From: Okeania sp. SIO1I7
GTDB taxonomy: Bacteria > Cyanobacteriota > Cyanobacteriia > Cyanobacteriales > Microcoleaceae
Length of the DNA stretch: 32,000 nucleotides
Reading direction: 5' to 3' (one strand)
NCBI RefSeq assembly: GCF_010672585.1
Contig: NZ_JAAHGF010000042.1
Positions 2,940 to 31,322 of this stretch are shown here, in pieces (the first letter of the stretch is position 1; each line of letters begins with the position of its first letter). A program made the position numbers and the translations under genes. The notes under the pieces are model-generated. The model ran no database searches, had not been told where the DNA came from, and worked only from the letters and a program-made list of their open reading frames with translations.

Positions 2940-3150
2940 TTGACATCCTCCCGACGCTGCTCTGTGAGACAGCGCAGGATTCCCATCCATCAATCAAACA
3001 GACGCTCGCTGAAGGAATGACTCAGGGTGGGTTGACACATCATTGGAATCTGCTGGCTTTTCAGTCTGACGTTTCCTCCGTGTCCGATAAATAATCGACC
3101 GTTGACCCTCGGCGACTTCATTGAAAAGTGATAGCTGTACAGGATTTTTT
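2940..3150 (-). ncRNA. Predicted TnpB guide RNA (omegaRNA/reRNA) scaffold overlapping the tnpB 3' end and right end
   Basis: By analogy with characterised TnpB systems, the RNA spans the 3' end of tnpB to the right end. Terminal stems are visible (ATCCT.../...GGAGGAT and GCTGTCTC-ACA-GAGCAGC). The 5' boundary is a guess. Confidence 0.4.
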
Positions 3151-4571
3151 GCTACTGTTCCTTTGGCTATTTCAACCTTGGTTTTCGGTTGAACAGCTTC
3201 TAAAATATTAACTGCTGCATTAATATCTCTGTCGTGAAACGTGCCACAATTTAAGCAAGTCCATTCTCTAACATTTAGCTCTTTTTTGCCTCCTTTGAAA
3301 CCACAATTAGACCACTTTTGAGATGTAGGCTCCCACCTAGAAATAGTTCTAAATTCTCTACCATATTTCTCGCACTTAGCCTCAGTTAAAGTTCTAAATT
3401 GCCTCCAACCTAAATCACTAATTGCTTTCGCTAATTTGCGGTCTCTTGGTGCGCGTTCCCTCTCTTGGTCGGCATTCCCTCTCTTGGTGCACGTTCCCTC
3501 TCTTGGTCGGCGTTCCCTTGCGACTGGCGTCGTCGCGGGGTCGCACCGCTTGCGACTGGCGTCGTCGCGGGGTCGCACCGCTTGCGACTGGCGTCGTCGC
3601 GGGGTCCGACCGCTTGCGACTGGCGTCGTCGCGGGGTCGCACCGCTTTTTAACCATGCCGGAAACATTTAAGTCTTCTAATACGATAGTATCGTAATTTA
3701 TGGCTAAATCAGTTGATAGCTTGTGTAGAAAATCTGTACGTTTGCGCAGCATTCCGTTTGCGTTTGCGTAGCATCCCGTAGGGAAGCATTCCGAAGGAAA
3801 GGAAATGTCTTTGACTTTTGCGTGTTTGCGCAGCATTCCGAAGGAAAGTTTAGCAACTCTAACCCTTGCCTTTTCACGACGTTTGCTACCTAGCTCAGTT
3901 TTGGCAAATTTACGTTGAAACTTACCTAATTTCTTGAGGTTTTTTTTAAGAGGTAATGATAGCTTAAACTTCTCACCATTACTCAAAGTTGCAAAAGTTG
4001 AAATGCCCAAATCAATACCTATTGAGTTTTCAGTCTTAGGTAAATTTTCAGCACAAGTTTCTACTACAAAGCTAGCAAAGTAACGTCCTGCACTATCTTT
4101 AATTATAGTAACTGAGCTAGGATTGCTAGCTAATGGTCTTGACCAAATAATTTTAATTTTTCCTACTTTTGGGAAATAGATTTTATCTTGACCAATTTTG
4201 TAATTAGCTCCGACAAATCTAACTGCTTGTCTAGACTTTCTACTCTTGCATTTAGGAGGTTTAACTTTAATTCCTTTACGTTTTCCAGTACAACTATTAA
4301 AGAAATTCCTGTAAGCTTGGTCTAAATCTTTGAGAGACTGTTGCAATGGAGTAGATGCTACTTCCTTTAACCAAACTAATTCTCTTTTAGCTTGAGTTAT
4401 AAATTGTTTGGTTAAGTCCACATAGCTAGGTCTCTTGTGACCATTAGTATACAATTGGTTACAGTGTGCTAATGCACTATTCCAAACATATCTGCAACAA
4501 CCAAATAGTTGATTTAATTTGATTATTTGAATATGATTTGGATATATGCGATACTTGTATCTGGCTTTCAA
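2994..4571 (-). CDS. tnpB: IS200/IS605-family RNA-guided endonuclease TnpB with in-frame repeat insertions
   Basis: 525 aa. N-terminus is YKYRIYPN..Q...LNQLFGCCRYVWN. RuvC-I is IGIDLGIS and RuvC-II is LEDLNVSGM. Zinc finger is SNCGF...CLNCG, and RuvC-III is HDRDINAAVNI. The protein is about 100 aa longer than usual because of insertions at 3443-3646 and 3741-3845. Confidence 0.9.
   Translation of the reverse strand: MKARYKYRIYPNHIQIIKLNQLFGCCRYVWNSALAHCNQLYTNGHKRPSYVDLTKQFITQAKRELVWLKEVASTPLQQSLKDLDQAYRNFFNSCTGKRKGIKVKPPKCKSRKSRQAVRFVGANYKIGQDKIYFPKVGKIKIIWSRPLASNPSSVTIIKDSAGRYFASFVVETCAENLPKTENSIGIDLGISTFATLSNGEKFKLSLPLKKNLKKLGKFQRKFAKTELGSKRREKARVRVAKLSFGMLRKHAKVKDISFPSECFPTGCYANANGMLRKRTDFLHKLSTDLAINYDTIVLEDLNVSGMVKKRCDPATTPVASGRTPRRRQSQAVRPRDDASRKRCDPATTPVARERRPREGTCTKRGNADQERERAPRDRKLAKAISDLGWRQFRTLTEAKCEKYGREFRTISRWEPTSQKWSNCGFKGGKKELNVREWTCLNCGTFHDRDINAAVNILEAVQPKTKVEIAKGTVAKNPVQLSLFNEVAEGQRSIIYRTRRKRQTEKPADSNDVSTHPESFLQRASV
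3443..3646. repeat. Composite GC-rich tandem repeat inside tnpB: 4 x 19 nt then 4 x 32 nt (204 nt)
   Basis: 19-nt units (CTCTTGGTSSRCRTTCCCT) start at 3443, 3462, 3481 and 3500. 32-nt units (TGCGACTGGCGTCGTCGCGGGGTCGCACCGCT) start at 3519, 3551, 3583 and 3615. The ORF track shows ORFs in all six frames across it. Confidence 0.95.
3741..3845. repeat. Two SDR-like GC-rich mini-insertions inside tnpB (66 nt at 3741-3806, 21 nt at 3825-3845)
   Basis: Both begin with the identical 16-mer TTTGCGCAGCATTCCG. They bracket the codons for HAKVKD. Lengths are multiples of 3. Confidence 0.7.
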
Positions 4572-5711: not shown

Positions 5712-5790
5712 GTCAGGAGACAACCCACCCCTAGCCCCTCCCAACCCACCCCTAGCCCCTCCCAGGAGGGGAGGGGGAGACAGGAGACAG
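5712..5790. repeat. GC-rich palindromic repeat cluster (CAACCCACCCCTAGCCCCTCC x2 + CAGGAGGGGAGGGG) flanked by CAGGAGA heptamers
   Basis: Direct reading. Related units occur at 11927-11971, 22236-22470 and 24800-24850. Confidence 0.8.
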
Positions 5791-7610: not shown

Positions 7611-8066
7611 ATGAAAAGAACCATCAAAAATCAATCTACTTCTGCTCATCCATTGGGTAGATTTGTAACTAGAGACGCATTAGCATTTCATTTGGGAATT
7701 AAATCAGATAATATCTACAAAATAAACTGTTGGAAATATGTAATTCATGTTGTAGGGAAAGGTAAAAGTAGGTTTGTAAGTTATGCCGATATGCCACCAA
7801 TTTTGGGGGTAGAACCACCAAAAAAATCAGATTTTACTAAATGGAGAAAGCGAATAAAGGCTAGAAAGCAAAAGTATGTCCCTAAATTTTGGGCACAATT
7901 TTATGTTGATAAAATTCAGAAATCTAATTCAATTTCAATATTACATAATTGGGAAAATTTAGTTAAACAATGCAAGTCATTAATATCATTAGAAGGAGTC
8001 AAAAAAATAGACATTGCTTTGATTCAAGAAAAGTCTAAATTAGAAAAATTAGTTTCTCATAGTTAG
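7611..8066 (+). CDS. Hypothetical lysine-rich protein (no recognised domain)
   Basis: 151-aa ORF with an ATG start and an A-rich upstream region. Divergent from 6745-7149. No motif recognised. Confidence 0.5.
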   Translation: MKRTIKNQSTSAHPLGRFVTRDALAFHLGIKSDNIYKINCWKYVIHVVGKGKSRFVSYADMPPILGVEPPKKSDFTKWRKRIKARKQKYVPKFWAQFYVDKIQKSNSISILHNWENLVKQCKSLISLEGVKKIDIALIQEKSKLEKLVSHS

Positions 8067-8618: not shown

Positions 8619-9059
8619 ATGCGACTACTACACACAATGCTGCGAGTCAACAACCTAGAAGAATCCCTAAAATTCTACTGCGATGTCCTCGGCATGAAAT
8701 TATTACGCCAAAAAGACTATCCAGGTGGTGAATTTACTCTAGCCTTTGTTGGTTATGGCGATGAGTCAGACCACACGGTACTTGAATTAACATATAATTG
8801 GGGCAAAGACCAATACGACTTGGGCGATGCTTATGGCCATATTGCTTTGGGCGTTGATGATATTTATGGCACTTGTGAACAAATAAAAGCACAGGGAGGA
8901 AAAGTGACCAGAGAACCAGGGCCAATGAAACATGGCTCCACAGTTATTGCCTTCATTGAAGACCCAAATGGATATAAAGTAGAACTAATTCAATTAAGCT
9001 CTCGTAGTAGCAATTTAGAAAAAGAAGTTGCAGCTAGCAGTGACGACTCCACGCACTAA
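8619..9059 (+). CDS. gloA: Lactoylglutathione lyase (glyoxalase I)
   Basis: 146 aa. N-terminus is [24 protein letters not shown]. The motifs [28 protein letters not shown] and GYKVELIQ are the classic GloA/VOC signature. Confidence 0.92.
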
Positions 9060-9089
9060 CGGCTATGCCTTTCAGTGTGGGCTTCTTAA

Positions 9090-9325
9090 GAAGTCTCGTC
9101 ATTAGCCTCAGATTTTCGCACTGGCCAGAAAATCTACGTTCATTAGGAATACATAGACACCTTGGGGTGTAGGGTTGGCATCCGTGTTCTAGCTCCAAGC
9201 TCTGTGGTTGCGATTAAACATCGCTGTGGGAGAGGCGAAGTGTCGTAACATCAAAACCCTAAATGAACATTGGCGAAGAACACCACAGCCTTCGGGCTGA
9301 ATCCTTTGAAGTTAAGGATACACAA
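9090..9325 (+). ncRNA. Candidate IscB guide RNA (omegaRNA) in the 271-nt ORF-free gap upstream of iscB
   Basis: Multiple helices readable. 9110-9117/9128-9135 is 8 bp. 9138-9147/9258-9268 is long-range. 9157-9161/9166-9170 and 9210-9214/9220-9224 are local hairpins. 9202-9208/9282-9288 is long-range. 9286-9290/9295-9299 has a TTCG loop. 9301-9306/9314-9319 covers the AAGGA SD. Position and size fit known IscB omegaRNAs. The ends are not determined. Confidence 0.6.
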
Positions 9326-9330
9326 ACATT

Positions 9331-10572
9331 ATGAAAGTTTACGTTATCAACAAACGGGACAGACCTTTAATGCCTACTACGGCCAGAAAAGCTCGACTTC
9401 TACTTAAATTTGGTAAAGCAACCATCCATCGTCGAGAACCTTTCACTATTAAATTAATTTATGGTTCTACGGGCTACACTCAACCAGGCAATTTGGGTAT
9501 TGATGCAGGTTATAAAAGCGTCGGCTTCAGCGCCGTCAACTCCACAGAAGAGTTAATTGGCGGTGAAGTTAAGCTACTTGAGAGAATATCAGAGCGATTG
9601 GCAGAACGTCGTCAATATCGTCGTCAAAGACGAAACAGACTACGCCACCGTCAACCCAGATTCAATAATCGCTGTCGTCTGAGAGGGTGGCTAGCTCCTA
9701 GCATCCAACATAAACTTGATAGCCATCACAAGATTATCAAGCTGGTTAAAGAGATTCTACCTATCAAAAAGGTAACGGTTGAGGTGGCCAGCTTCGATCT
9801 CCAAAAAATCAAGAATCCTGACATCGAAGGCAAAGGTGATCAACAGGGAGAGCAATTAGGGTTTTCTAACTTGCGAGAATACATCCTCCATAGGGACAAC
9901 CATAAATGTCAGAATCCCAACTGCAAAAACAAAGCAAAACAACCAATTTTACAAGTTCATCATCTTGGTTTCTGGAACCAAGACCGAAGTGATAGACCCA
10001 GTAATTTAATTACTCTGTGTTCAAAATGCCACACGCCTGCAAACCATAAACCAGGCAAATTTCTACACGGATGGAAACCAAAACTTAAAAGTTTCAAACC
10101 AGAAACATTTATGACCTTGGTCTGGAGAAAGTTAACAACTGATGTAGGCTACGAAGCAACTTATGGCTACATCACCAAAGATGTACGGAGAGAATATCAA
10201 ATTGAGAAATCCCATCACAATGATGCCTTTGTAATTGCAGGTGGAACAAATCAACGAAGAATCGAACCGATAAAATATCAACAAGTTAGAAGGAATAAGC
10301 GTTCAATAGAGCAATTCTATGATGCCAAATATATTGATTTACGAGATGGAAATATAAACTCAGGTACAGAATTATTTTCTGGACGACGAACTAGAAATAA
10401 GAATGAGAACACTGAAAACTTAAGAAAGTATCGAGGTCAGAAAGTAAAACAAGGTCAAAGAAGAATTAAAGTACATCGCTACCCGTACAGTCAACATGAC
10501 TTAGTTCTTTATGAAGGTAAGGTGTTTTCTGTGATTGGAATGCAGAACAAAGGCAAAGGAGCTGATTGCTAG
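9331..10572 (+). CDS. iscB: IscB-type RNA-guided endonuclease (PLMP domain + split RuvC + HNH), IS200/IS605-associated
   Basis: 413 aa. RPLMP lies at aa 11-15 and RuvC-I LGIDAG at D58. The Arg-rich bridge helix is RRQYRRQRRNRLRHRQPRFNNR (aa 93-114). RuvC-II is VTVEVASFD. HNH is CQNPNC...VHHLGFW...NLITLCSKCH (aa 193-234). RuvC-III is SHHNDAFVIA. The C-terminus may be shortened. Confidence 0.9.
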   Translation: MKVYVINKRDRPLMPTTARKARLLLKFGKATIHRREPFTIKLIYGSTGYTQPGNLGIDAGYKSVGFSAVNSTEELIGGEVKLLERISERLAERRQYRRQRRNRLRHRQPRFNNRCRLRGWLAPSIQHKLDSHHKIIKLVKEILPIKKVTVEVASFDLQKIKNPDIEGKGDQQGEQLGFSNLREYILHRDNHKCQNPNCKNKAKQPILQVHHLGFWNQDRSDRPSNLITLCSKCHTPANHKPGKFLHGWKPKLKSFKPETFMTLVWRKLTTDVGYEATYGYITKDVRREYQIEKSHHNDAFVIAGGTNQRRIEPIKYQQVRRNKRSIEQFYDAKYIDLRDGNINSGTELFSGRRTRNKNENTENLRKYRGQKVKQGQRRIKVHRYPYSQHDLVLYEGKVFSVIGMQNKGKGADC

Positions 10573-10674
10573 TATCAATATCTATGGCAATTTCCGGCAA
10601 TAACTGACACATCTGATAGGGATTTTTTTGACAAGGCCAAAAAATAGTTGACAATGTGCTTGGAGGTGATTTGA

Positions 10675-11910
10675 TTGTACGCCAAAAAATTTGAATTAAA
10701 ACTCAGTAACCAGGAGCGCTCAAAAATGGCTCAATGCGCTGGTTATGCTCGTTTCGTTTACAATTATGGCCTCAGTATGGTTAATGGAACTTCTGCCATG
10801 ACCAAAGTTAACAAACGTGGTCAGAAAGTTAGCTTGAGTTACACATTACGAATTTTAGAAGCTAAAAAAGTCTTTACTAACTATGTAAAGAAGCAACCAG
10901 AATATGCCTGGACAAATAATTATTCGTCTCGCATTTATCAAAGTGCTTTTCAACATCTAGGTGAAGCATTTAAACGGTATAAAGAAGGAATTAGTAAATA
11001 TCCTAAATTGAAAAAGAAAAAAGACCGCCAATCTTTTACTGTTTATGACAGTAATGGAAAAGTTACAATTAGCTCTGGTAAAAAAATTAAAATACCAACA
11101 TTAGGGACTTTTCGATTATGGGAATCAATTCCTTGCACCACAGCAAGTCAGACTTTTACTATTAGCAGAACAGGGGAAAAATGGTTTGTTAGTTTTAGTA
11201 TTGAAGCTGAGAATTTGCCAGTTAATCCACTATTAGATGGACGTGTTCAAGAAACTTTTGGTATAGATGTTGGGGTCAAACAATTTGCCAGTATAGCAAA
11301 CCAAAAAAAGGCGGACTCCGAAGTTTTCAGTCTCCCAGACTCTATTAAACTAGAGCAATTAAAAATTGCTAAGTTTCAATGGCGTAATCGGAAGAAACAA
11401 CTAGGAGGTAAAGGTAAACCACCTTCAAAAAATGCTATTAAATATTACAAAAAACTCGCGAAGTACCATGACCGTGTGAAGAACGTGCGCAGGGATTTCA
11501 TAGAGAAAACTACTACAAAATTAGTGGGTAAAGTTAAGCACGTCTGCTTAGAGAGTTTAAATGTGAAAGGGATGATACAAAATGGTAAATTGGCAGCATC
11601 AATAGCAAGGCTTGGATTTTATGAATTTAGAGAACGATTGACAACCAAAATCGTAAGCTCTGGTGGGACAGTAGTGCTAGCTGACCAGTGGTTTCCATCA
11701 TCCAAAACTTGTCATAATTGTGGTTGTATTAACCAAGAATTAAAGCTAAAAGACCGTACTTTTAACTGCCCTCATTGTGGAATGAGAATAGACCGGGACC
11801 TGAATGCAGCACTGGTGCTATCTCAGTATGGAGAAATTAATCAAAAAAATAGGGTAGGCTGTACCCGAATTTACGCTTGTGAACTGGACGAGGGCGGCCT
11901 CCCAGGTTGA
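10675..11910 (+). CDS. tnpB: IS200/IS605-family RNA-guided endonuclease TnpB
   Basis: 411 aa. TTG start with GGAGG 8 nt upstream. N-terminus is KFELKLSNQ....CAGYARFVYNYGL. RuvC-I is FGIDVGVKQ and RuvC-II is LESLNVKGM. Zinc finger is CHNCGC...CPHCG, and RuvC-III is DRDLNAALVL. Confidence 0.9.
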   Translation: MYAKKFELKLSNQERSKMAQCAGYARFVYNYGLSMVNGTSAMTKVNKRGQKVSLSYTLRILEAKKVFTNYVKKQPEYAWTNNYSSRIYQSAFQHLGEAFKRYKEGISKYPKLKKKKDRQSFTVYDSNGKVTISSGKKIKIPTLGTFRLWESIPCTTASQTFTISRTGEKWFVSFSIEAENLPVNPLLDGRVQETFGIDVGVKQFASIANQKKADSEVFSLPDSIKLEQLKIAKFQWRNRKKQLGGKGKPPSKNAIKYYKKLAKYHDRVKNVRRDFIEKTTTKLVGKVKHVCLESLNVKGMIQNGKLAASIARLGFYEFRERLTTKIVSSGGTVVLADQWFPSSKTCHNCGCINQELKLKDRTFNCPHCGMRIDRDLNAALVLSQYGEINQKNRVGCTRIYACELDEGGLPG

Positions 11911-11926
11911 AGCAAGAAGCAAACAT
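11760..11926 (+). ncRNA. Predicted omegaRNA scaffold of the second TnpB (3' end of gene to right end)
   Basis: Positional analogy only. Both boundaries are uncertain. Confidence 0.3.
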
Positions 11927-11971
11927 CACCCACCCCCATCCCCTCCTGGGAGGGGAGCTAGAGGGGTGGGT
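11927..11971. repeat. GC-rich palindromic repeat (ACCCACCCCCATCCCCTCCTGGGAGGGGAGCTAGAGGGGTGGGT)
   Basis: The arms ACCCACCCC/GGGGTGGGT and CCCCTCC/GGAGGGG pair. Same family as 5721-5775. Confidence 0.8.
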
Positions 11972-12249
11972 CAGGTTTTACCGAGTTTTGCCGGAATTGT
12001 ATAGGTATTGTACAGCAGTAGCAAATAAGGTTGTCAAACCGAAAGCGGTCAAATCAATCAGAAGAAACGGAGGTTTAAGTCGTGTTGTTTAGTAATCAAG
12101 ACCCCATCGGCGATTCATCCACATAGACTCCTGACTTCTGAGTTATGACTCCAGCAGCCAAAAGCACAGCAAAGATACCATATTCTATATAAATAGTTTT
12201 ATTTAACCACCAGAAAAAATTTCAAAGGAAAAAATTTAAAATAGTCCAA

Positions 12250-14967
12250 ATGCAGCCAACCGACCCAAGCAAATTTACAGAACAAGCCTGGGATGCTATA
12301 GTCAAATCCCAGGACGTTGCCCGACGTTACCAAAACCAACAACTAGAAGTAGAACACCTAATCATTGCTCTTTTAGAACAACAGGGGACAGCTAACAAAA
12401 TTTTAAACCGCGTTGGTATAGAACCAGAAAATCTCCTCCAACAAATAGACTCTTTCGCCAAACGCCAACCCAAAGTTGGTAGTATTGAACATCTCTATCT
12501 AGGACGTAGTCTGGAAATTTTTCTAGACCTAGCTGATGAAGCAAGAGAACAATGGGAAGACAAATTTATTGCTGTCGAACACCTCCTACTAGCTTTTTAC
12601 CAAGACAAACGCCTTGGTAATAAACTCCTCGGTGGAGGTACTCCCCAACTACCAACTCGTCCTGGTTTTGAGCGCCCCCAAACCTCACCCAAAGTTGAAT
12701 TTGAACAACTAGAAGCAGCAATTAAAGCAGTTCGTGGTAGTACCAAAGTCGAAGACCAAAACCCAGAAGCTAGTTATGATGCTTTGGCAAAATATGGGCG
12801 CGACCTGACAGAGTTAGCTAAAGCAGGCAAACTTGACCCTGTTATTGGTAGAGATGAAGAAATTCGGCGCGTGGTTAGTTGTTTATCCCGTCGGACAAAA
12901 AATAATCCTGTACTTATTGGAGAACCAGGAGTTGGAAAAACAGCGATCGCTGAAGGTTTAGCTCAACGCATTGTTAATGGTGATGTACCAGAGTCTCTCA
13001 AAGAACGACAACTCATTGGTCTTGATATGGGAAGTCTCATCGCAGGGGCAAAATTTAGAGGGGAATTTGAAGAAAGGCTCAGATCGGTTTTGCGAGAAGT
13101 AACCAACTCTGATGGTCAAATTGTTCTATTTATCGACGAACTACATACTGTTGTTGGAGCAGGTTCTAGTGGCGGTACGGGTTCGGGTGTAGATGCAGGT
13201 AACCTCCTCAAACCAATGCTTGCTCGTGGAGAATTGCGTTGTATTGGTGCGACAACTATTGATGAATATCGTAAACATATAGAAAAAGATGCTGCTCTGG
13301 AACGTCGGTTTCAAAAGGTAGAGGTTGGTCAACCAAGTGTGGAGGATACTATTTCTATTTTACGGGGGTTAAAAGACCGTTACGAAACTCACCACGGTGT
13401 AAAAATTACTGATGCTGCTTTGGTAGCTGCTGCAACTCTTTCTAACCGTTATATTTCGGACCGCTTTTTGCCAGATAAGGCAATCGACTTGGTAGATGAA
13501 GCTGCTGCTCAACTAAAAATGGAAATTACTTCTAAACCTGAGGAACTAGAAGCTATTGACAGACGTATTATGCAGTTGGAAATGGAGAAACTTTCCATCG
13601 AGGGAGAGTTGCAAAGCAGCAAAAAAGATCAAAATTCTGAACCTACCCCACCTGCAAAAGTTTCTCCAGCATTGCAACGCATTACAAATGAAATTAATGT
13701 CTTGAAGCAAAAGCAGGAAAAATTTTCTTCTAAATGGTCGGGGGAAAAAGAATTGTTAAATACAATTAATTCTCTCAAAGCAGAAGAGGATAAATTAAAA
13801 GTACAAATAGAACAAGCAGAACGAGCTTATGACCTGAATACCGCAGCTCAATTAAAATATGGCCAACTCGAAACAGTACATCGCGATCGCGAAGCTAAGG
13901 AGGCAGAATTATTAAAAGTTCAAGCTCAAGGTTCGTCTCTTCTTCGGGAACAAGTTACGGATGCTGATATTGCCACTATCGTAGCTAAGTGGACTGGTAT
14001 TCCAGTAAATCGTTTATTGGAGTCGGAACGCCAGAAGTTACTACAGTTGGAAAAACATCTACATCAACGGGTTATTGGGCAGTCGGAAGCGGTGGAAGCT
14101 GTGGCGGCAGCTATTAGACGTGCTAGAGCAGGGATGAAAGACCCAGGGCGACCTATTGGTTCATTTATGTTTCTCGGTCCGACTGGAGTCGGTAAAACAG
14201 AATTGGCGCGAGCTTTGGCACAGTTTTTGTTTGACCGAGATGATGCTTTAGTCCGCATTGATATGTCTGAATATATGGAAAAACACGCCGTTTCTCGGTT
14301 AGTGGGTGCCCCTCCGGGATATGTGGGTTACGATCAAGGGGGTCAATTATCGGAGGCAGTAAGGCGACATCCTTATTCTGTGATTTTGTTTGATGAAGTC
14401 GAGAAAGCACATCCAGATGTATTTAATGTATTACTGCAAGTATTAGATGATGGTAGGATTACTGATTCTCAAGGAAGACTGGTTGATTTTAGTAATACTG
14501 TAATTGTAATGACAAGTAATATTGGCAGTGAGTATATTTTGGATGTAGCGGGAGATGATTCTAAGTATGAGGAGATGTATAAGCGAGTGATAGGAGGATT
14601 GAGAAAACATTTCCGCCCAGAATTTTTAAATAGGGTAGATGAGATTATATTGTTCCACACTTTAAGGAAGAGTGAATTACGTCAAATTGTGGAAATTCAA
14701 GTGAAGAGAATTGAGAGATTATTAGGGGAACAAAAGATTAGTTTGAAGTTAACTGCTGCAACATTAGACCACATTGCTGAAGTTGGATATGACCCGGTTT
14801 ATGGAGCGCGACCTTTGAAACGAGCAATTCAAAAAGAATTAGAAAATCCTCTGGCAAATTTGATTTTAGAGAATAAATTTGTTGGTGGGGATATTGTGGT
14901 AATTGATTGTGTAGATGGTGGTTTAGTGTTTGGGAAAAAAGAGGAATTGGAATTGGTGAAAAGTTAA
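12250..14967 (+). CDS. clpB: ATP-dependent chaperone ClpB (Hsp100 disaggregase)
   Basis: 905 aa. Clp N-domain present. NBD1 Walker A is GEPGVGKT. A coiled-coil M-domain follows. NBD2 Walker A is GPTGVGKT with Walker [11 protein letters not shown]. The [10 protein letters not shown] sensor motif is present. Confidence 0.95.
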
Positions 14968-21892: not shown

Positions 21893-22129
21893 ATGGGTCG
21901 TAAATGTCAATTGACTGGAAAGAAAGCTAATAATGGCTATGCAGTTTCCCACTCCCATATCCGCACCCACAAGTTGCAGCAAGCAAATCTCCAATGGAAG
22001 AGAGTTTGGTGGCCTCAAGGTAATCGTTGGGTGAAACTGCGACTATCGACTAAAGCAATTAAAACTTTAGAAAACAAAGGTGTACAAGCTATGGCTAAGG
22101 CCGCTGGCATTAACTTGAATAAGTGCTGA
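21893..22129 (+). CDS. rpmB: 50S ribosomal protein L28
   Basis: 78 aa. [37 protein letters not shown] is the L28 signature. Confidence 0.93.
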
Positions 22130-22198: not shown

Positions 22199-22470
22199 GG
22201 GTTTGCGTATGGAAAGTATGAGTGGTAGGGGTAGGAGTCAACCCACCCGCAGGCCCCTCCCCTCCTGCAGGGTCTATTTATTGTCACGCGAGCGAAAAAT
22301 TTATGGGGGGATGGGAACCTACCCCTAGCCCCTCCCAGGAGGGGAATGTGGGGGGATGGCCAGATGGGAGATGGAGATATTTGTATATTTGCACAATTAA
22401 ATGTACTTCATATTAATATTCTCCCCAGGCAATGAATTAGCCCTGCTCCCCTCCTGGGAGGGGAAGGACA
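22196..22470. repeat. Repeat cluster: TTAGGGTTTGCG-family fragment plus three GC-rich palindromic units
   Basis: 22196-22240 matches 18689-18730. The units CAACCCACCC...CCCCTCCCCTCC, CCTACCCCTAGCCCCTCCCAGGAGGGGAA and CTCCCCTCCTGGGAGGGGAAGG belong to the 5721/11927 family. Confidence 0.75.
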
Positions 22471-24800: not shown

Positions 24801-25112
24801 CACCCACCCCTCTTGCTCCCCTCCCGGGAGTAGATGGGGGTGGGTTATGATTCTTGACCATGTTTTTTATTGCCAAATCCTCACCTACTATCGTTCGGTT
24901 TTCTGTAATTAGTTGAAAGGAAAAGCAGTTTGTAGATGCCTCAAGCCTTGTTGTAGTAATGGGACACTACTAAAACAAATTTAGATGTTCCTTTTGACTC
25001 CCATGTACTTTTCTCGGTTATATTGACTACTACAAATTAGCAATGTCATAATTTTATAAATATCAACAACAATTAAATTGGGATGTGGTAGTAAAAACCG
25101 GTAAACAGCTAT

Positions 25113-29892: not shown

Positions 29893-31260
29893 AAGGACGG
29901 TCAACTTAAATAGAGTCCCCAAAATTGGACTAAACGTGCTACAATCTTAATCTACTCTAAGCAAGGCAGTATCGGAGTTATGATTGTCTACGAATTCAAG
30001 GTCAAAGGAAAAACTCAGCAATATCAAGCGATTGATGAAGCAATCCGGACGGGTCAATTTGTCAGAAATTGCTGCTTGAGATTTTGGATAGACAACATTG
30101 GGATAAGCAGAAAAGAACTGTATAGGTACAACACTGAACTGCGTGCTATGTATCCCTTTGTGAAAGATTTAAACTCCCATGCTTGCCAGGCATCTGTAGA
30201 ACGATTTTGGTCAGCAATTGCTCGTTTTTTTGACAATTGCGAGAAAAACATCCCAGGTAAGAAGGGATACCCACAGTTCAAAAAACGTAGCCGCTCTATT
30301 GAATATAAAACATCTGGTTGGAAGTTGTTAAATCCCAAACACATTGAATTTACCGACAAAAAAGGGATTGGTAGACTCAAACTAATTGGAACCTGGGACT
30401 TAGCATTCTATCCGGTTGAGAAGATTAAACGAGTCAGACTGGTCAGACGAGAGTCACGGGTACTACGCCCAATTCTGTATCAGTGTAGAAGTGAAAGTGG
30501 AAACTCAACCCACTAAAAAGAATGTAGGGTTGGATGTTGGACTCAAAGAATTCTACACCGACTCAGATGGCAAAACTGAACCATGTCCACGATTCTACAG
30601 AAAAAGCGAGAAACGAATGAAGTTCTGTCAACGTCGTGTTTCTCCCAAGCACAAAGGCAGTGCCAACAGCTTCAAAGCCATCAATAAACTAGGTCGAGTA
30701 CACCTCAAAATAAGTAGGCAACGTGAAGAACACGCCAAGAGACTGGCGCGTTGCGTAGTCCACTCTAACGACGTGGTAGCTTATGTAGACGCGGAGCGGC
30801 GCGCCGAAGGCAGATTTGAGGATTAAAAATTTAGTCAAAAACCACTGTCTGGCCAAGTCTATTAATGATGCAGGTTGGTATCAATTCAGGAAATGGGCGC
30901 GAGTATTTTGGTCATAAATTTGGCAAGGTAACGGTTGCAGTTAATCCAGCCTAAAAAGCGCCAAAATTGCTCAAATTGTGGAACAACGGTGAAGAAATCA
31001 CTATCAACTCGAACTCATGTTTGTCAATGTGGATGTGTTTTAGATAGAGACCACAACGCCGCAATTAATATTCTCAATTCTGCCTTAAGTACGATGGGGC
31101 ACATCGGAACTTGGCTCAATGAGTCAAACGCTAGACTCGCTAGACTCGTCATGCTCCGCAAACGGGAGATTCTGGCACTACTGAGGTTGGAGAAATCCTG
31201 TCTCAGCAACCAGGGTCATAGAACGAAGAATCCTCCGTGCTTCAGCCGGAGGATTGTCAA
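29865..31260 (+). mobile_element. tnpB-only IS200/IS605-family element, degraded
   Basis: A left-end hairpin CCGTCC-TAGAA-GGACGG lies near 29880. The right end GAATCCTCCGTGCTTCAGCCGGAGGATTGTCAA ends at 31260. The left boundary is approximate. Confidence 0.7.
29980..31245 (+). pseudogene. tnpB: tnpB pseudogene (at least 3 frame disruptions plus a 33-nt in-frame insertion)
   Basis: Three ORF pieces make up the gene. 29980-30516 gives MIVYEFKVKGK.QQY.AIDEAIRTGQFVRN. 30416-30826 gives VGLDVGLKEF...HAKRLARCVV. 30935-31312 gives CSNCG...CQCGCVLDRDHNAAINI. Stops or shifts lie near 30470, 30825 and 30950. Confidence 0.85.
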
Positions 31261-31322
31261 AGGAAGCAAGCAAGTTATGATGAAAAAATACAAATCGTTC
31301 TCTCAGCAGTAGAGGCTAAAGT

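Follow-up and report, generated by a model that had tools for sequence, protein, structure and literature searches.

The locus described here raises the question of whether an IscB nuclease of only 413 aa is a naturally compact enzyme or the remainder of a longer one. It lies just downstream of gloA in a 32,000-nt stretch of contig NZ_JAAHGF010000042.1 (hereafter the window) from Okeania sp. SIO1I7, a filamentous cyanobacterium of the Microcoleaceae. A first-pass annotation, made from the sequence alone, had described a transposon-borne IscB with a structured RNA upstream and a guide derived from flanking DNA, and had called the protein a compact cyanobacterial variant. Comparison with homologous loci indicates that the locus is very probably an IscB element inserted in gloA, split by a TnpB element and lacking its far end (the end distal to the RNA): a decaying element that is no longer intact.

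Truncation of iscB by a nested TnpB element

The existence of the iscB open reading frame (ORF; 9331-10572, plus strand, 413 aa) was confirmed. Its product matched the Pfam domains RRXRR (197 bits, cutoff 25) and HNH (29.7 bits, cutoff 21.4) and the NCBIfam equivalog guided_IscB ('RNA-guided endonuclease IscB'; 325 bits against a cutoff of 175), and its best matches in the Protein Data Bank (PDB) were IscB structures. Each of the motifs listed by the first-pass annotation was found, and in homologue alignments their columns are invariant or nearly so: RPLMP at aa 11-15, GIDAG with D58, the Arg-rich stretch at 93-114, E151 in VEVA, the HNH residues C193, C198, H210-H211, N225, C230, C233 and H234, and HHND at 295-298. 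The catalytic residues D58, E151, H210/H211, H295 and D298 were present in alignments of both 10 and 30 sequences. GenBank and RefSeq hold the identical protein as 'RNA-guided endonuclease IscB [Okeania sp. SIO1I7]', with no pseudogene flag. Along with the NCBIfam score, the upstream RNA (98.3 bits for its Rfam family, with covariation; see below) bears out the original description and strongly supports the assignment of this ORF as a transposon-borne IscB nuclease with an upstream omegaRNA and a guide taken from flanking DNA.

The length of the protein is a different matter. Its best homologues have 441-448 aa, and among the best 120 all those outside its own cluster have at least 426 aa, most of them 441-448. 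The window protein departs from the family alignment after ...GMQNKGKG (aa 410) and ends ADC*; the native part of the ORF is 9331-10561 (aa 1-410 and the first base of codon 411), and 10562-10572 belongs to a TnpB element. DNA homology to the intact elements on contigs L001, L002 and L169 breaks off at 10561 and is picked up again at about 12018, where a small ORF ending AVANKVVKPKAVKSIRRNGGLSRVV* supplies the missing C-terminus of the family. This detached 3' fragment of iscB (12021-12092, plus strand) consists of 23 codons and a stop (ANKVVKPKAVKSIRRNGGLSRVV*), matches homologue C-termini, and is 97% identical in DNA sequence to L169 and 83% to L001.

The closest intact allele, P0362 (442 aa, in the same 90% protein cluster as the window protein), is encoded on the Logan contig L169 with 97% nucleotide identity. 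Positions 1-23 of L169 are what we take to be Illumina adapter sequence (TCAGACGTGTGCTCTTCCGATCT), so the start of the omegaRNA on that contig is not genomic. The uninterrupted site in this allele reads GGCAAAGGAG-TAAAGTTAGCCTCTTACCCAGGAG-TAGCAAAT; at the same place in the window, the TnpB element stands between the first AGGAG and TAGCAAAT. Compared with L169, 24 nt (encoding VKLASYPG) are missing, between two 7-nt AGGAGTA repeats, and with the TnpB element removed the two parts of iscB are in frame (434 aa). We also considered that the missing 23-24 nt might survive in diverged form within the TnpB left end, and rejected this since about 19 copies of the TnpB element start at 10562 and L169 shows the AGGAGTA repeats. 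The 413-aa IscB is thus the product of truncation by a nested TnpB insertion in codon 411, and its size is not that of a compact natural variant: the insertion (10562-12018) truncates a protein whose relatives have 441-448 aa. The 'full IscB architecture' of the first-pass annotation holds for the catalytic motifs but fails at the C-terminal domain, which is cut at aa 410, aa 411-413 and the stop being read from the TnpB element.

The inserted element was delimited by aligning 19 left and 21 right ends of copies found on Okeania-like metagenome contigs and one Logan contig. Homology to about 19 copies begins a few bases before 10562 (a shared target motif), about 20 copies end at 12018, and the flanks differ in every copy. 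Because the copies share sharp ends with differing flanks, the insertion is, by this comparison, a 1457-nt non-autonomous element of the IS200/IS605 type, carrying tnpB without tnpA (10562-12018, plus strand; left end CTGATTGCTAGTATCAA, right end ...GTATTGTACAGCAG). The left end begins CTGATTGCTAG... at 10562, after AGGAG or a close variant. In the window, AGGAG occupies 10557-10561 (plus strand) within the iscB coding sequence, directly 5' of the left end; the five bases at this position are AGGAG in 12 of the 19 copies and GGGAG, GAGAG or AAGAG in most others, and farther upstream the flanks are unrelated. As AGGAG pre-exists in the uninterrupted allele on L169, these comparisons support its reading as a target motif, or target-adjacent motif (TAM), of the TnpB element.

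Okeania sp. SIO3H1 (locus L170) carries the same gloA-IscB-TnpB-clpB composite with 97.7% identity over 9.2 kb and the same 413-aa product; the composite is therefore shared by inheritance and is not an assembly artefact. Elsewhere the arrangement was not encountered: IscB was found in 0 of 81 TnpB loci, and a single, distant TnpB among 81 IscB loci, so that nesting of TnpB in IscB is not a recurrent architecture.

The omegaRNA, the guide and the ends of the IscB element

A covariance-model search, which the first-pass annotation had proposed as a check, placed Rfam family HEARO (RF02033) at 9040-9288 on the plus strand (98.3 bits, gathering score 83, E 3e-19, positions 1-211 of 211 in the model), the sole Rfam match in a scan of the whole window. 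HEARO RNA is now known as the omegaRNA of IscB (Meers et al., 10.1101/2023.03.14.532601). We fetched 80 loci encoding IscB relatives and scanned 20 of them: all 20 had HEARO immediately before iscB and in the same orientation; 10 reached the gathering score and the other 10 scored 58-83 bits (E <=3e-9). When 11 loci were aligned, the consensus structure (RNAalifold, pair counts) had 59 pairs, and at 35 of these both partners had changed in a compensatory way; 95.6% of the cells were paired, against 38-45% when the 3' partners were slid by 1-3 columns, and 0 of 500 column shuffles matched the observed values. The region upstream of iscB is a structured RNA far beyond chance, with the structure supported by covariation among homologous copies.

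Two more hairpins lie 3' of the Rfam model, at 9286-9299 (CAGCC-TTCG-GGCTG) and 9301-9319 (ATCCTT-TGAAGTT-AAGGAT); RF02033 lacks the downstream elements according to Meers et al. (10.1101/2023.03.14.532601). Both recur in about 30 loci with different, covarying stem sequences, and hairpin 9301-9319 is therefore a conserved element of this omegaRNA family. The first-pass annotation had rightly seen this hairpin but had given it the role of sequestering the ribosome-binding site; its 3' arm reads AAGGA in a small clade only and is not Shine-Dalgarno-like in most relatives. The scaffold thus spans 9040-9319 (plus strand, about 280 nt), made up of the HEARO core and the two 3' hairpins.

The scaffold starts further upstream than had been thought. 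The RNA had been placed between the gloA stop and the iscB ATG; the structure is there, but it begins inside gloA, with position 1 of the HEARO model at 9040, 20 nt before the end of that gene. The alignment with other copies, also proposed as a check, showed conservation among 11 IscB elements starting exactly at 9040 (GTGAYGAC...), with the 20 columns upstream unconserved. The IscB element hence has a sharp transposon end on the omegaRNA side (what Meers et al. call the right end, RE) at scaffold position 1, and the flanks of different copies are unrelated.

This end lies within the 3' part of gloA (lactoylglutathione lyase; 8619-9059, plus strand, 146 aa; Pfam Glyoxalase, NCBIfam glyox_I), which is chimeric. 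Its codons are native to about 9038, and the first 20 nt of the scaffold, on the 5' strand of omegaRNA helix P1, supply the last six codons and stop (SDDSTH*). Orthologues of gloA encode 142 aa ending ...EVAASAN*, and the closest orthologous locus (L163; gloA then clpB, 96% nucleotide identity) matches the window to 9038 and again from 12214. Because of these two observations, we read the IscB element as having replaced the last two gloA codons and the stop. A reconstruction in which 9039 is joined directly to 12126 would end gloA with ...AASIDS*; it was rejected, since the orthologues have ...AASAN* at this point and the element is truncated at its far end.

The transposon RE gives rise to the scaffold in IscB elements, the guide being the flank 5' of that scaffold, outside the transposon, and transcription of the omegaRNA must start outside the element, so that read-through is needed (10.1101/2023.03.14.532601). 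Since the scaffold starts at 9040, this rule places the guide at about 9024-9039 (plus strand; GAAGTTGCAGCTAGCA), just outside the transposon end, where it should be encoded by gloA codons and made by read-through from gloA; we infer a length of about 16 nt, with the boundary set to within 1 nt either way. The earlier location of the guide, around 9085-9105, does not stand, because that region is scaffold: it forms the 3' strand of helix P1, pairing with 9040-9047. A promoter scan returned fewer sites than chance alone would give, and none just upstream of the omegaRNA. A two-mismatch match to the guide at 21970-21985 has no (G)CTAA motif and was taken as chance.

At the far end, the intact elements on L169, L001 and L002 and about 20 other cyanobacterial IscB elements have, after the iscB stop, ATTCATCCCACRCTGA, a hairpin, CAGRYGTGGGGCTTCT and AGCTAA, and then diverge. 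The window tracks L169 to ...ATTCATCCACA (about 12125) and then departs from it, leaving a remnant of the far end (left end, LE, side; 12093-12125, plus strand) that is cut within the 5' arm of the terminal hairpin; L169, L001 and L002 extend about 50 nt beyond this remnant (CCCACACTGAC...CAGATGTGGGGCTTCTCGCCG.TAA.GCTAA). The missing hairpin was searched for across the window and not found. The intact far end, a subterminal hairpin with the adjacent target motif, is lost in this copy, and the IscB element can consequently no longer be excised by TnpA. No TnpA (Y1) transposase domain was detected in window ORFs of at least 110 aa; absence of tnpA is usual for non-autonomous IscB and TnpB elements (10.1101/2023.03.14.532601). 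The 83 nt at 12126-12208 match neither the IscB element nor the spacers of the orthologous loci; those spacers are variable and contain other insertion sequences (IS). The empty site in the orthologous locus L163 reads GCAGCTAGC|GCTAATTGA, and because of this sequence the GCTAA adjoining the far end of IscB elements is judged to come from the target. The motif (G)CTAA, located 3' of the protospacer, is accordingly our candidate for the target motif or TAM of the cyanobacterial IscB family.

Partial loss of the C-terminal domain and the probable state of the locus

The closest intact (442-aa) allele runs 32 residues past aa 410, in place of which the window copy carries three foreign residues, so that a complete C-terminal TAM-interaction domain (TID) is absent from the protein. 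In a profile alignment, aa 387 stands opposite residue 433 of OgeuIscB, the last residue of the P1-interaction domain, after which the linker to the TID follows (PMC13284715). PDB sequence and profile searches left the last 55 residues unaligned and gave no residue-by-residue map of the truncation on OgeuIscB. From an AlphaFold model of an intact homologue, P0002, the confident C-terminal domain alone was used: the mean predicted local distance difference test score is 56, and residues 381-435 are the sole long confident stretch (70-89). The model has strands at 391-394, 397-405, 410-413 and 430-433, forming a predicted C-terminal barrel at about 388-435, and its structural matches, besides IscB, are Tudor/KOW/SH3-like barrels some 53 residues long. 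Two strands of the predicted barrel remain after a cut at aa 410, and on the model the 413-aa product is without more than half of its small C-terminal beta-barrel, the presumptive TID. Deletion of the TID of OgeuIscB abolishes the preference for double-stranded DNA (dsDNA), leaving a protein that binds single-stranded nucleic acid only (PMC13284715). By analogy, the 413-aa protein most likely cannot read a TAM and is inactive on dsDNA.

These observations suggest the following history. A non-autonomous IS200/IS605-type IscB element would have inserted into the last gloA codons in the same orientation as gloA, yielding an omegaRNA composed of a gloA-copied guide (about 9024-9039) and the scaffold of about 280 nt (9040-9319), produced only by read-through from gloA. 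While the element was intact, IscB and its omegaRNA would have cut the empty site regenerated by excision, that is, the gloA end followed by (G)CTAA, and repair from another copy of the chromosome would have restored the element. The 1457-nt TnpB element would then have entered after AGGAG in codon 411, separating the last 23 iscB codons, and deletion of the far end, with its terminal hairpin and flanking motif, would have put an end to excision by TnpA. The IscB system is probably both immobilised and inactive on dsDNA.

Several points weigh against this reading, or limit it. The (G)CTAA and AGGAG assignments are inferred from flank comparisons alone; orthologues differ in their gloA-clpB spacer, which thus offers no measure of how far the far-end deletion extends; and equating the C-terminal domain with the OgeuIscB TID rests on position and fold class, in a P0002 model that is poor overall. 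The 413-aa protein keeps all catalytic residues and an intact omegaRNA, with which some activity is conceivable. The IscB part differs from that of SIO3H1 at 2 sites in 1522 nt, against 8 in 421 nt for gloA, which does not look like free decay, on counts too small to interpret.

How far could the locus still be active? An intact, compact 413-aa IscB that cleaves dsDNA, with an omegaRNA wholly between the gloA stop and the iscB start and a guide around 9085-9105, would agree with the full set of catalytic motifs, the full-length omegaRNA and the unflagged IscB annotation. We find it scarcely credible, given that the best 120 homologues outside this cluster reach at least 426 aa and mostly 441-448, that the ORF leaves the family alignment at aa 410 for a conserved TnpB left end, that the missing C-terminus lies 1.46 kb downstream in frame, and that the scaffold begins at 9040 inside gloA, with 9085-9105 pairing to 9040-9047 in P1. 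Another possibility is a disruption that can be reversed. The TnpB ends are sharp and typical of their family, with an AGGAG target motif, and a TnpA supplied in trans could excise the element, joining GGAG|TAGCAAAT in frame to the native stop; the resulting 434-aa IscB, minus eight residues, might be active, and the locus would switch on and off. The eight-residue gap falls in a region that is variable in some homologues, P0119 having a 3-aa gap there. Set against this are the lack of tnpA in the window (ORFs of at least 110 aa), a TnpB guide predicted to cut the restored site and so to select against the excised state, the prediction that the eight missing residues include a beta-strand (410-413 in the model), and the fact that a restored IscB would still sit in an element without its far end. 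On balance, such switching is unlikely.

A further possibility is that the truncated IscB and its omegaRNA form a complex that reads no TAM and binds or cuts only single-stranded DNA (ssDNA) or RNA complementary to the gloA-derived guide. An engineered TID deletion gives a stable IscB ribonucleoprotein that binds only single strands (PMC13284715), the catalytic residues and omegaRNA of the window copy are intact, and the truncated allele is nearly unchanged in two assemblies. The truncation is nevertheless an IS accident and not a conserved architecture, with no other short homologue in the best 120; the two leftover barrel strands may misfold instead of behaving like a clean domain deletion; no target is evident; and the two assemblies are too close to show selection. 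We consider a complex of this kind very unlikely, and it is highly improbable that the IS-truncated IscB survives as a natural TAM-independent complex engaging only ssDNA or RNA that match its gloA-derived guide. If it did, it would offer a natural snapshot of an OMEGA nuclease changing its substrate class through a transposon accident. The preferred reading remains a decaying IscB element, split by the TnpB insertion and without its far end.

The nested element, known systems and neighbouring features

The tnpB gene of the nested element (10675-11910, plus strand) starts at a TTG and encodes 411 aa (RefSeq begins at the ATG at 10723, for 394 aa), with Pfam domains HTH_OrfB_IS605, OrfB_IS605 and Cas12f1-like_TNB and a guided_TnpB score of 229 bits against the NCBIfam cutoff of 100. 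The protein aligned end to end with the TnpB structures 8IAZ and 8EXA (residues 5-382), its RuvC residues being D198, E293 and D373, and relatives with 80-90% identity occur in Okeania and Hydrocoleum. The promoter scan returned one consensus-like site at 10628-10655, upstream of tnpB. With its intact ORF, intact catalytic triad and sharp ends, the nested element looks functional.

The guide of a TnpB omegaRNA sits 3' of the right end. The predicted scaffold (11800-12018, plus strand), for which the RNA limits are approximate, would consist of the tnpB 3' end and 108 nt of the right end; across 18 copies, conservation of this region holds as far as 12018 and is absent from the 20 nt beyond. 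Compensatory changes in 7 of 30 consensus pairs hint, weakly, at a conserved fold, and the region had no Rfam match in the window scan. A group I intron or other RNA family that might rescue the interrupted gene in the manner of an IStron was sought in the insertion, and none was found. A 44-nt palindrome (11928-11971) replaces the short hairpin of the other copies in the window copy and in L083. Judged from the right-end boundary at 12018, the predicted guide is TAGCAAATAAGGTTGTCAAA (12019-12038, plus strand), which is iscB coding sequence and unique in the window. Under the established homing model of TnpB (10.1101/2023.03.14.532601), the nested TnpB would be expected to cut any iscB copy from which the insertion has been lost. 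The palindrome belongs to a G/C-rich family of 30-51 nt (CACCCACCCC..CCCCTCCYGGGAGGGG..) with members at 5743-5772, 11921-11971, 22316-22345, 22435-22464 and 24802-24852. In the comparison of L170 with 8619-12250 of the window, the TnpB element differs at about 58 sites clustered at 11026-11530, which suggests gene conversion among TnpB copies in these Okeania assemblies.

In its parts, the locus is of a known kind: the protein was already annotated, the RNA is an Rfam family, and nesting of one IS in another is commonplace. It resembles IscB-omegaRNA elements of the IS200/IS605 group (OgeuIscB, PDB 7UTN/7XHT; GstIscB of ISGst, Meers et al.) in its catalytic residues, in the order PLMP/RRXRR, RuvC-I, bridge helix, RuvC-II, HNH, RuvC-III and C-terminal domains, in an upstream omegaRNA of the same orientation whose 5' scaffold end is the transposon end and whose guide derives from the flank, and in its co-oriented upstream host gene and lack of tnpA (non-autonomous). 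Unlike these, the window copy is without the last 32 residues of the 442-aa allele and without the far transposon end; intact members of the cyanobacterial family have 441-448 aa against 496 aa for OgeuIscB, and their (G)CTAA motif, in contrast with experimentally defined ones, is predicted from sequence. The RNA matches HEARO over its full length (1-211) above the gathering score, with helices that show compensatory changes in relatives. It differs from the model in the two extra 3' hairpins of the family (9286-9319) and in longer, variable loops, which bring 10 of the 20 relatives to just below the gathering score.

The nested element likewise resembles TnpB-omegaRNA elements (ISDra2 TnpB, PDB 8EXA/8H1J; IS1341-like) in its HTH, RuvC and zinc-ribbon (TNB) regions and D-E-D triad, its conserved ends, the short motif 5' of the left end, the conserved non-coding tail and the unconserved flank that would hold the guide. 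Its predicted target motif is purine-rich (AGGAG), compared with the TTGAT or TTCAT type of known TnpB elements; its omegaRNA region carries the 44-nt host palindrome in place of a short hairpin; and it sits inside the gene of another OMEGA nuclease. In lacking a complete TID, the window IscB is comparable to R-IscB, an engineered TID-deleted OgeuIscB (PMC13284715). R-IscB is a clean deletion with proven single-stranded binding, whereas the loss in the window protein is partial and accidental and is seen at the level of sequence.

As a discovery the locus carries little weight, IscB and its HEARO omegaRNA being well described. It does mark a trap for annotation: the 413-aa 'IscB' recorded for two Okeania assemblies results from truncation and is no compact natural variant to be mined for genome editing, the intact member having 442 aa. 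It also yields guide and target-motif predictions, (G)CTAA for the cyanobacterial IscB family and AGGAG for the TnpB family, and documents one OMEGA element nested in another, with a TnpB guide that would be specified by iscB coding sequence.

A second ORF of the TnpB family (2994-4571, minus strand, 525 aa; HTH_OrfB_IS605, OrfB_IS605, TNB) contains in-frame tandem repeats of 19-nt and 32-nt units at 3442-3676, between its RuvC and zinc-ribbon regions. A third TnpB-family gene (29980-31312, plus strand) is broken, with OrfB_IS605 in ORF 30416-30826 and TNB in ORF 30935-31312, which brings the 32-kb window to three TnpB genes and one IscB gene with no tnpA (ORFs of at least 110 aa). In related genomes, too, gloA lies in a hot spot for insertions: a different TnpB element directly follows the gloA stop in L167 (2930-3000) and L168 (1429-1500), its hairpin (CCCGACGCTGAC..CAGCGCGGGCTTCC) resembling the ends of IscB elements, and fragments of TnpB precede gloA in L164 and L166 (635-2151). 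L002, which holds the nearest genomic relative of the IscB element (85% protein identity), carries near its iscB stop a 140-nt insertion (3113-3252) that is rich in CTGACTCCTGAG-type repeats and alters the C-terminus of the protein. In the Microcoleus loci L007, L008 and L010 (about 35-1830), about 15-20 tRNA genes form an array on the opposite strand, and the IscB element follows directly downstream of it. Upstream of gloA, a 151-aa ORF (7611-8066, plus strand) has no Pfam match and is conserved in position in L163, L165, L167 and L170 (151-152 aa), and a tandem array at 659-762 consists of about 13 copies of an 8-nt unit, CTCCCCNA.

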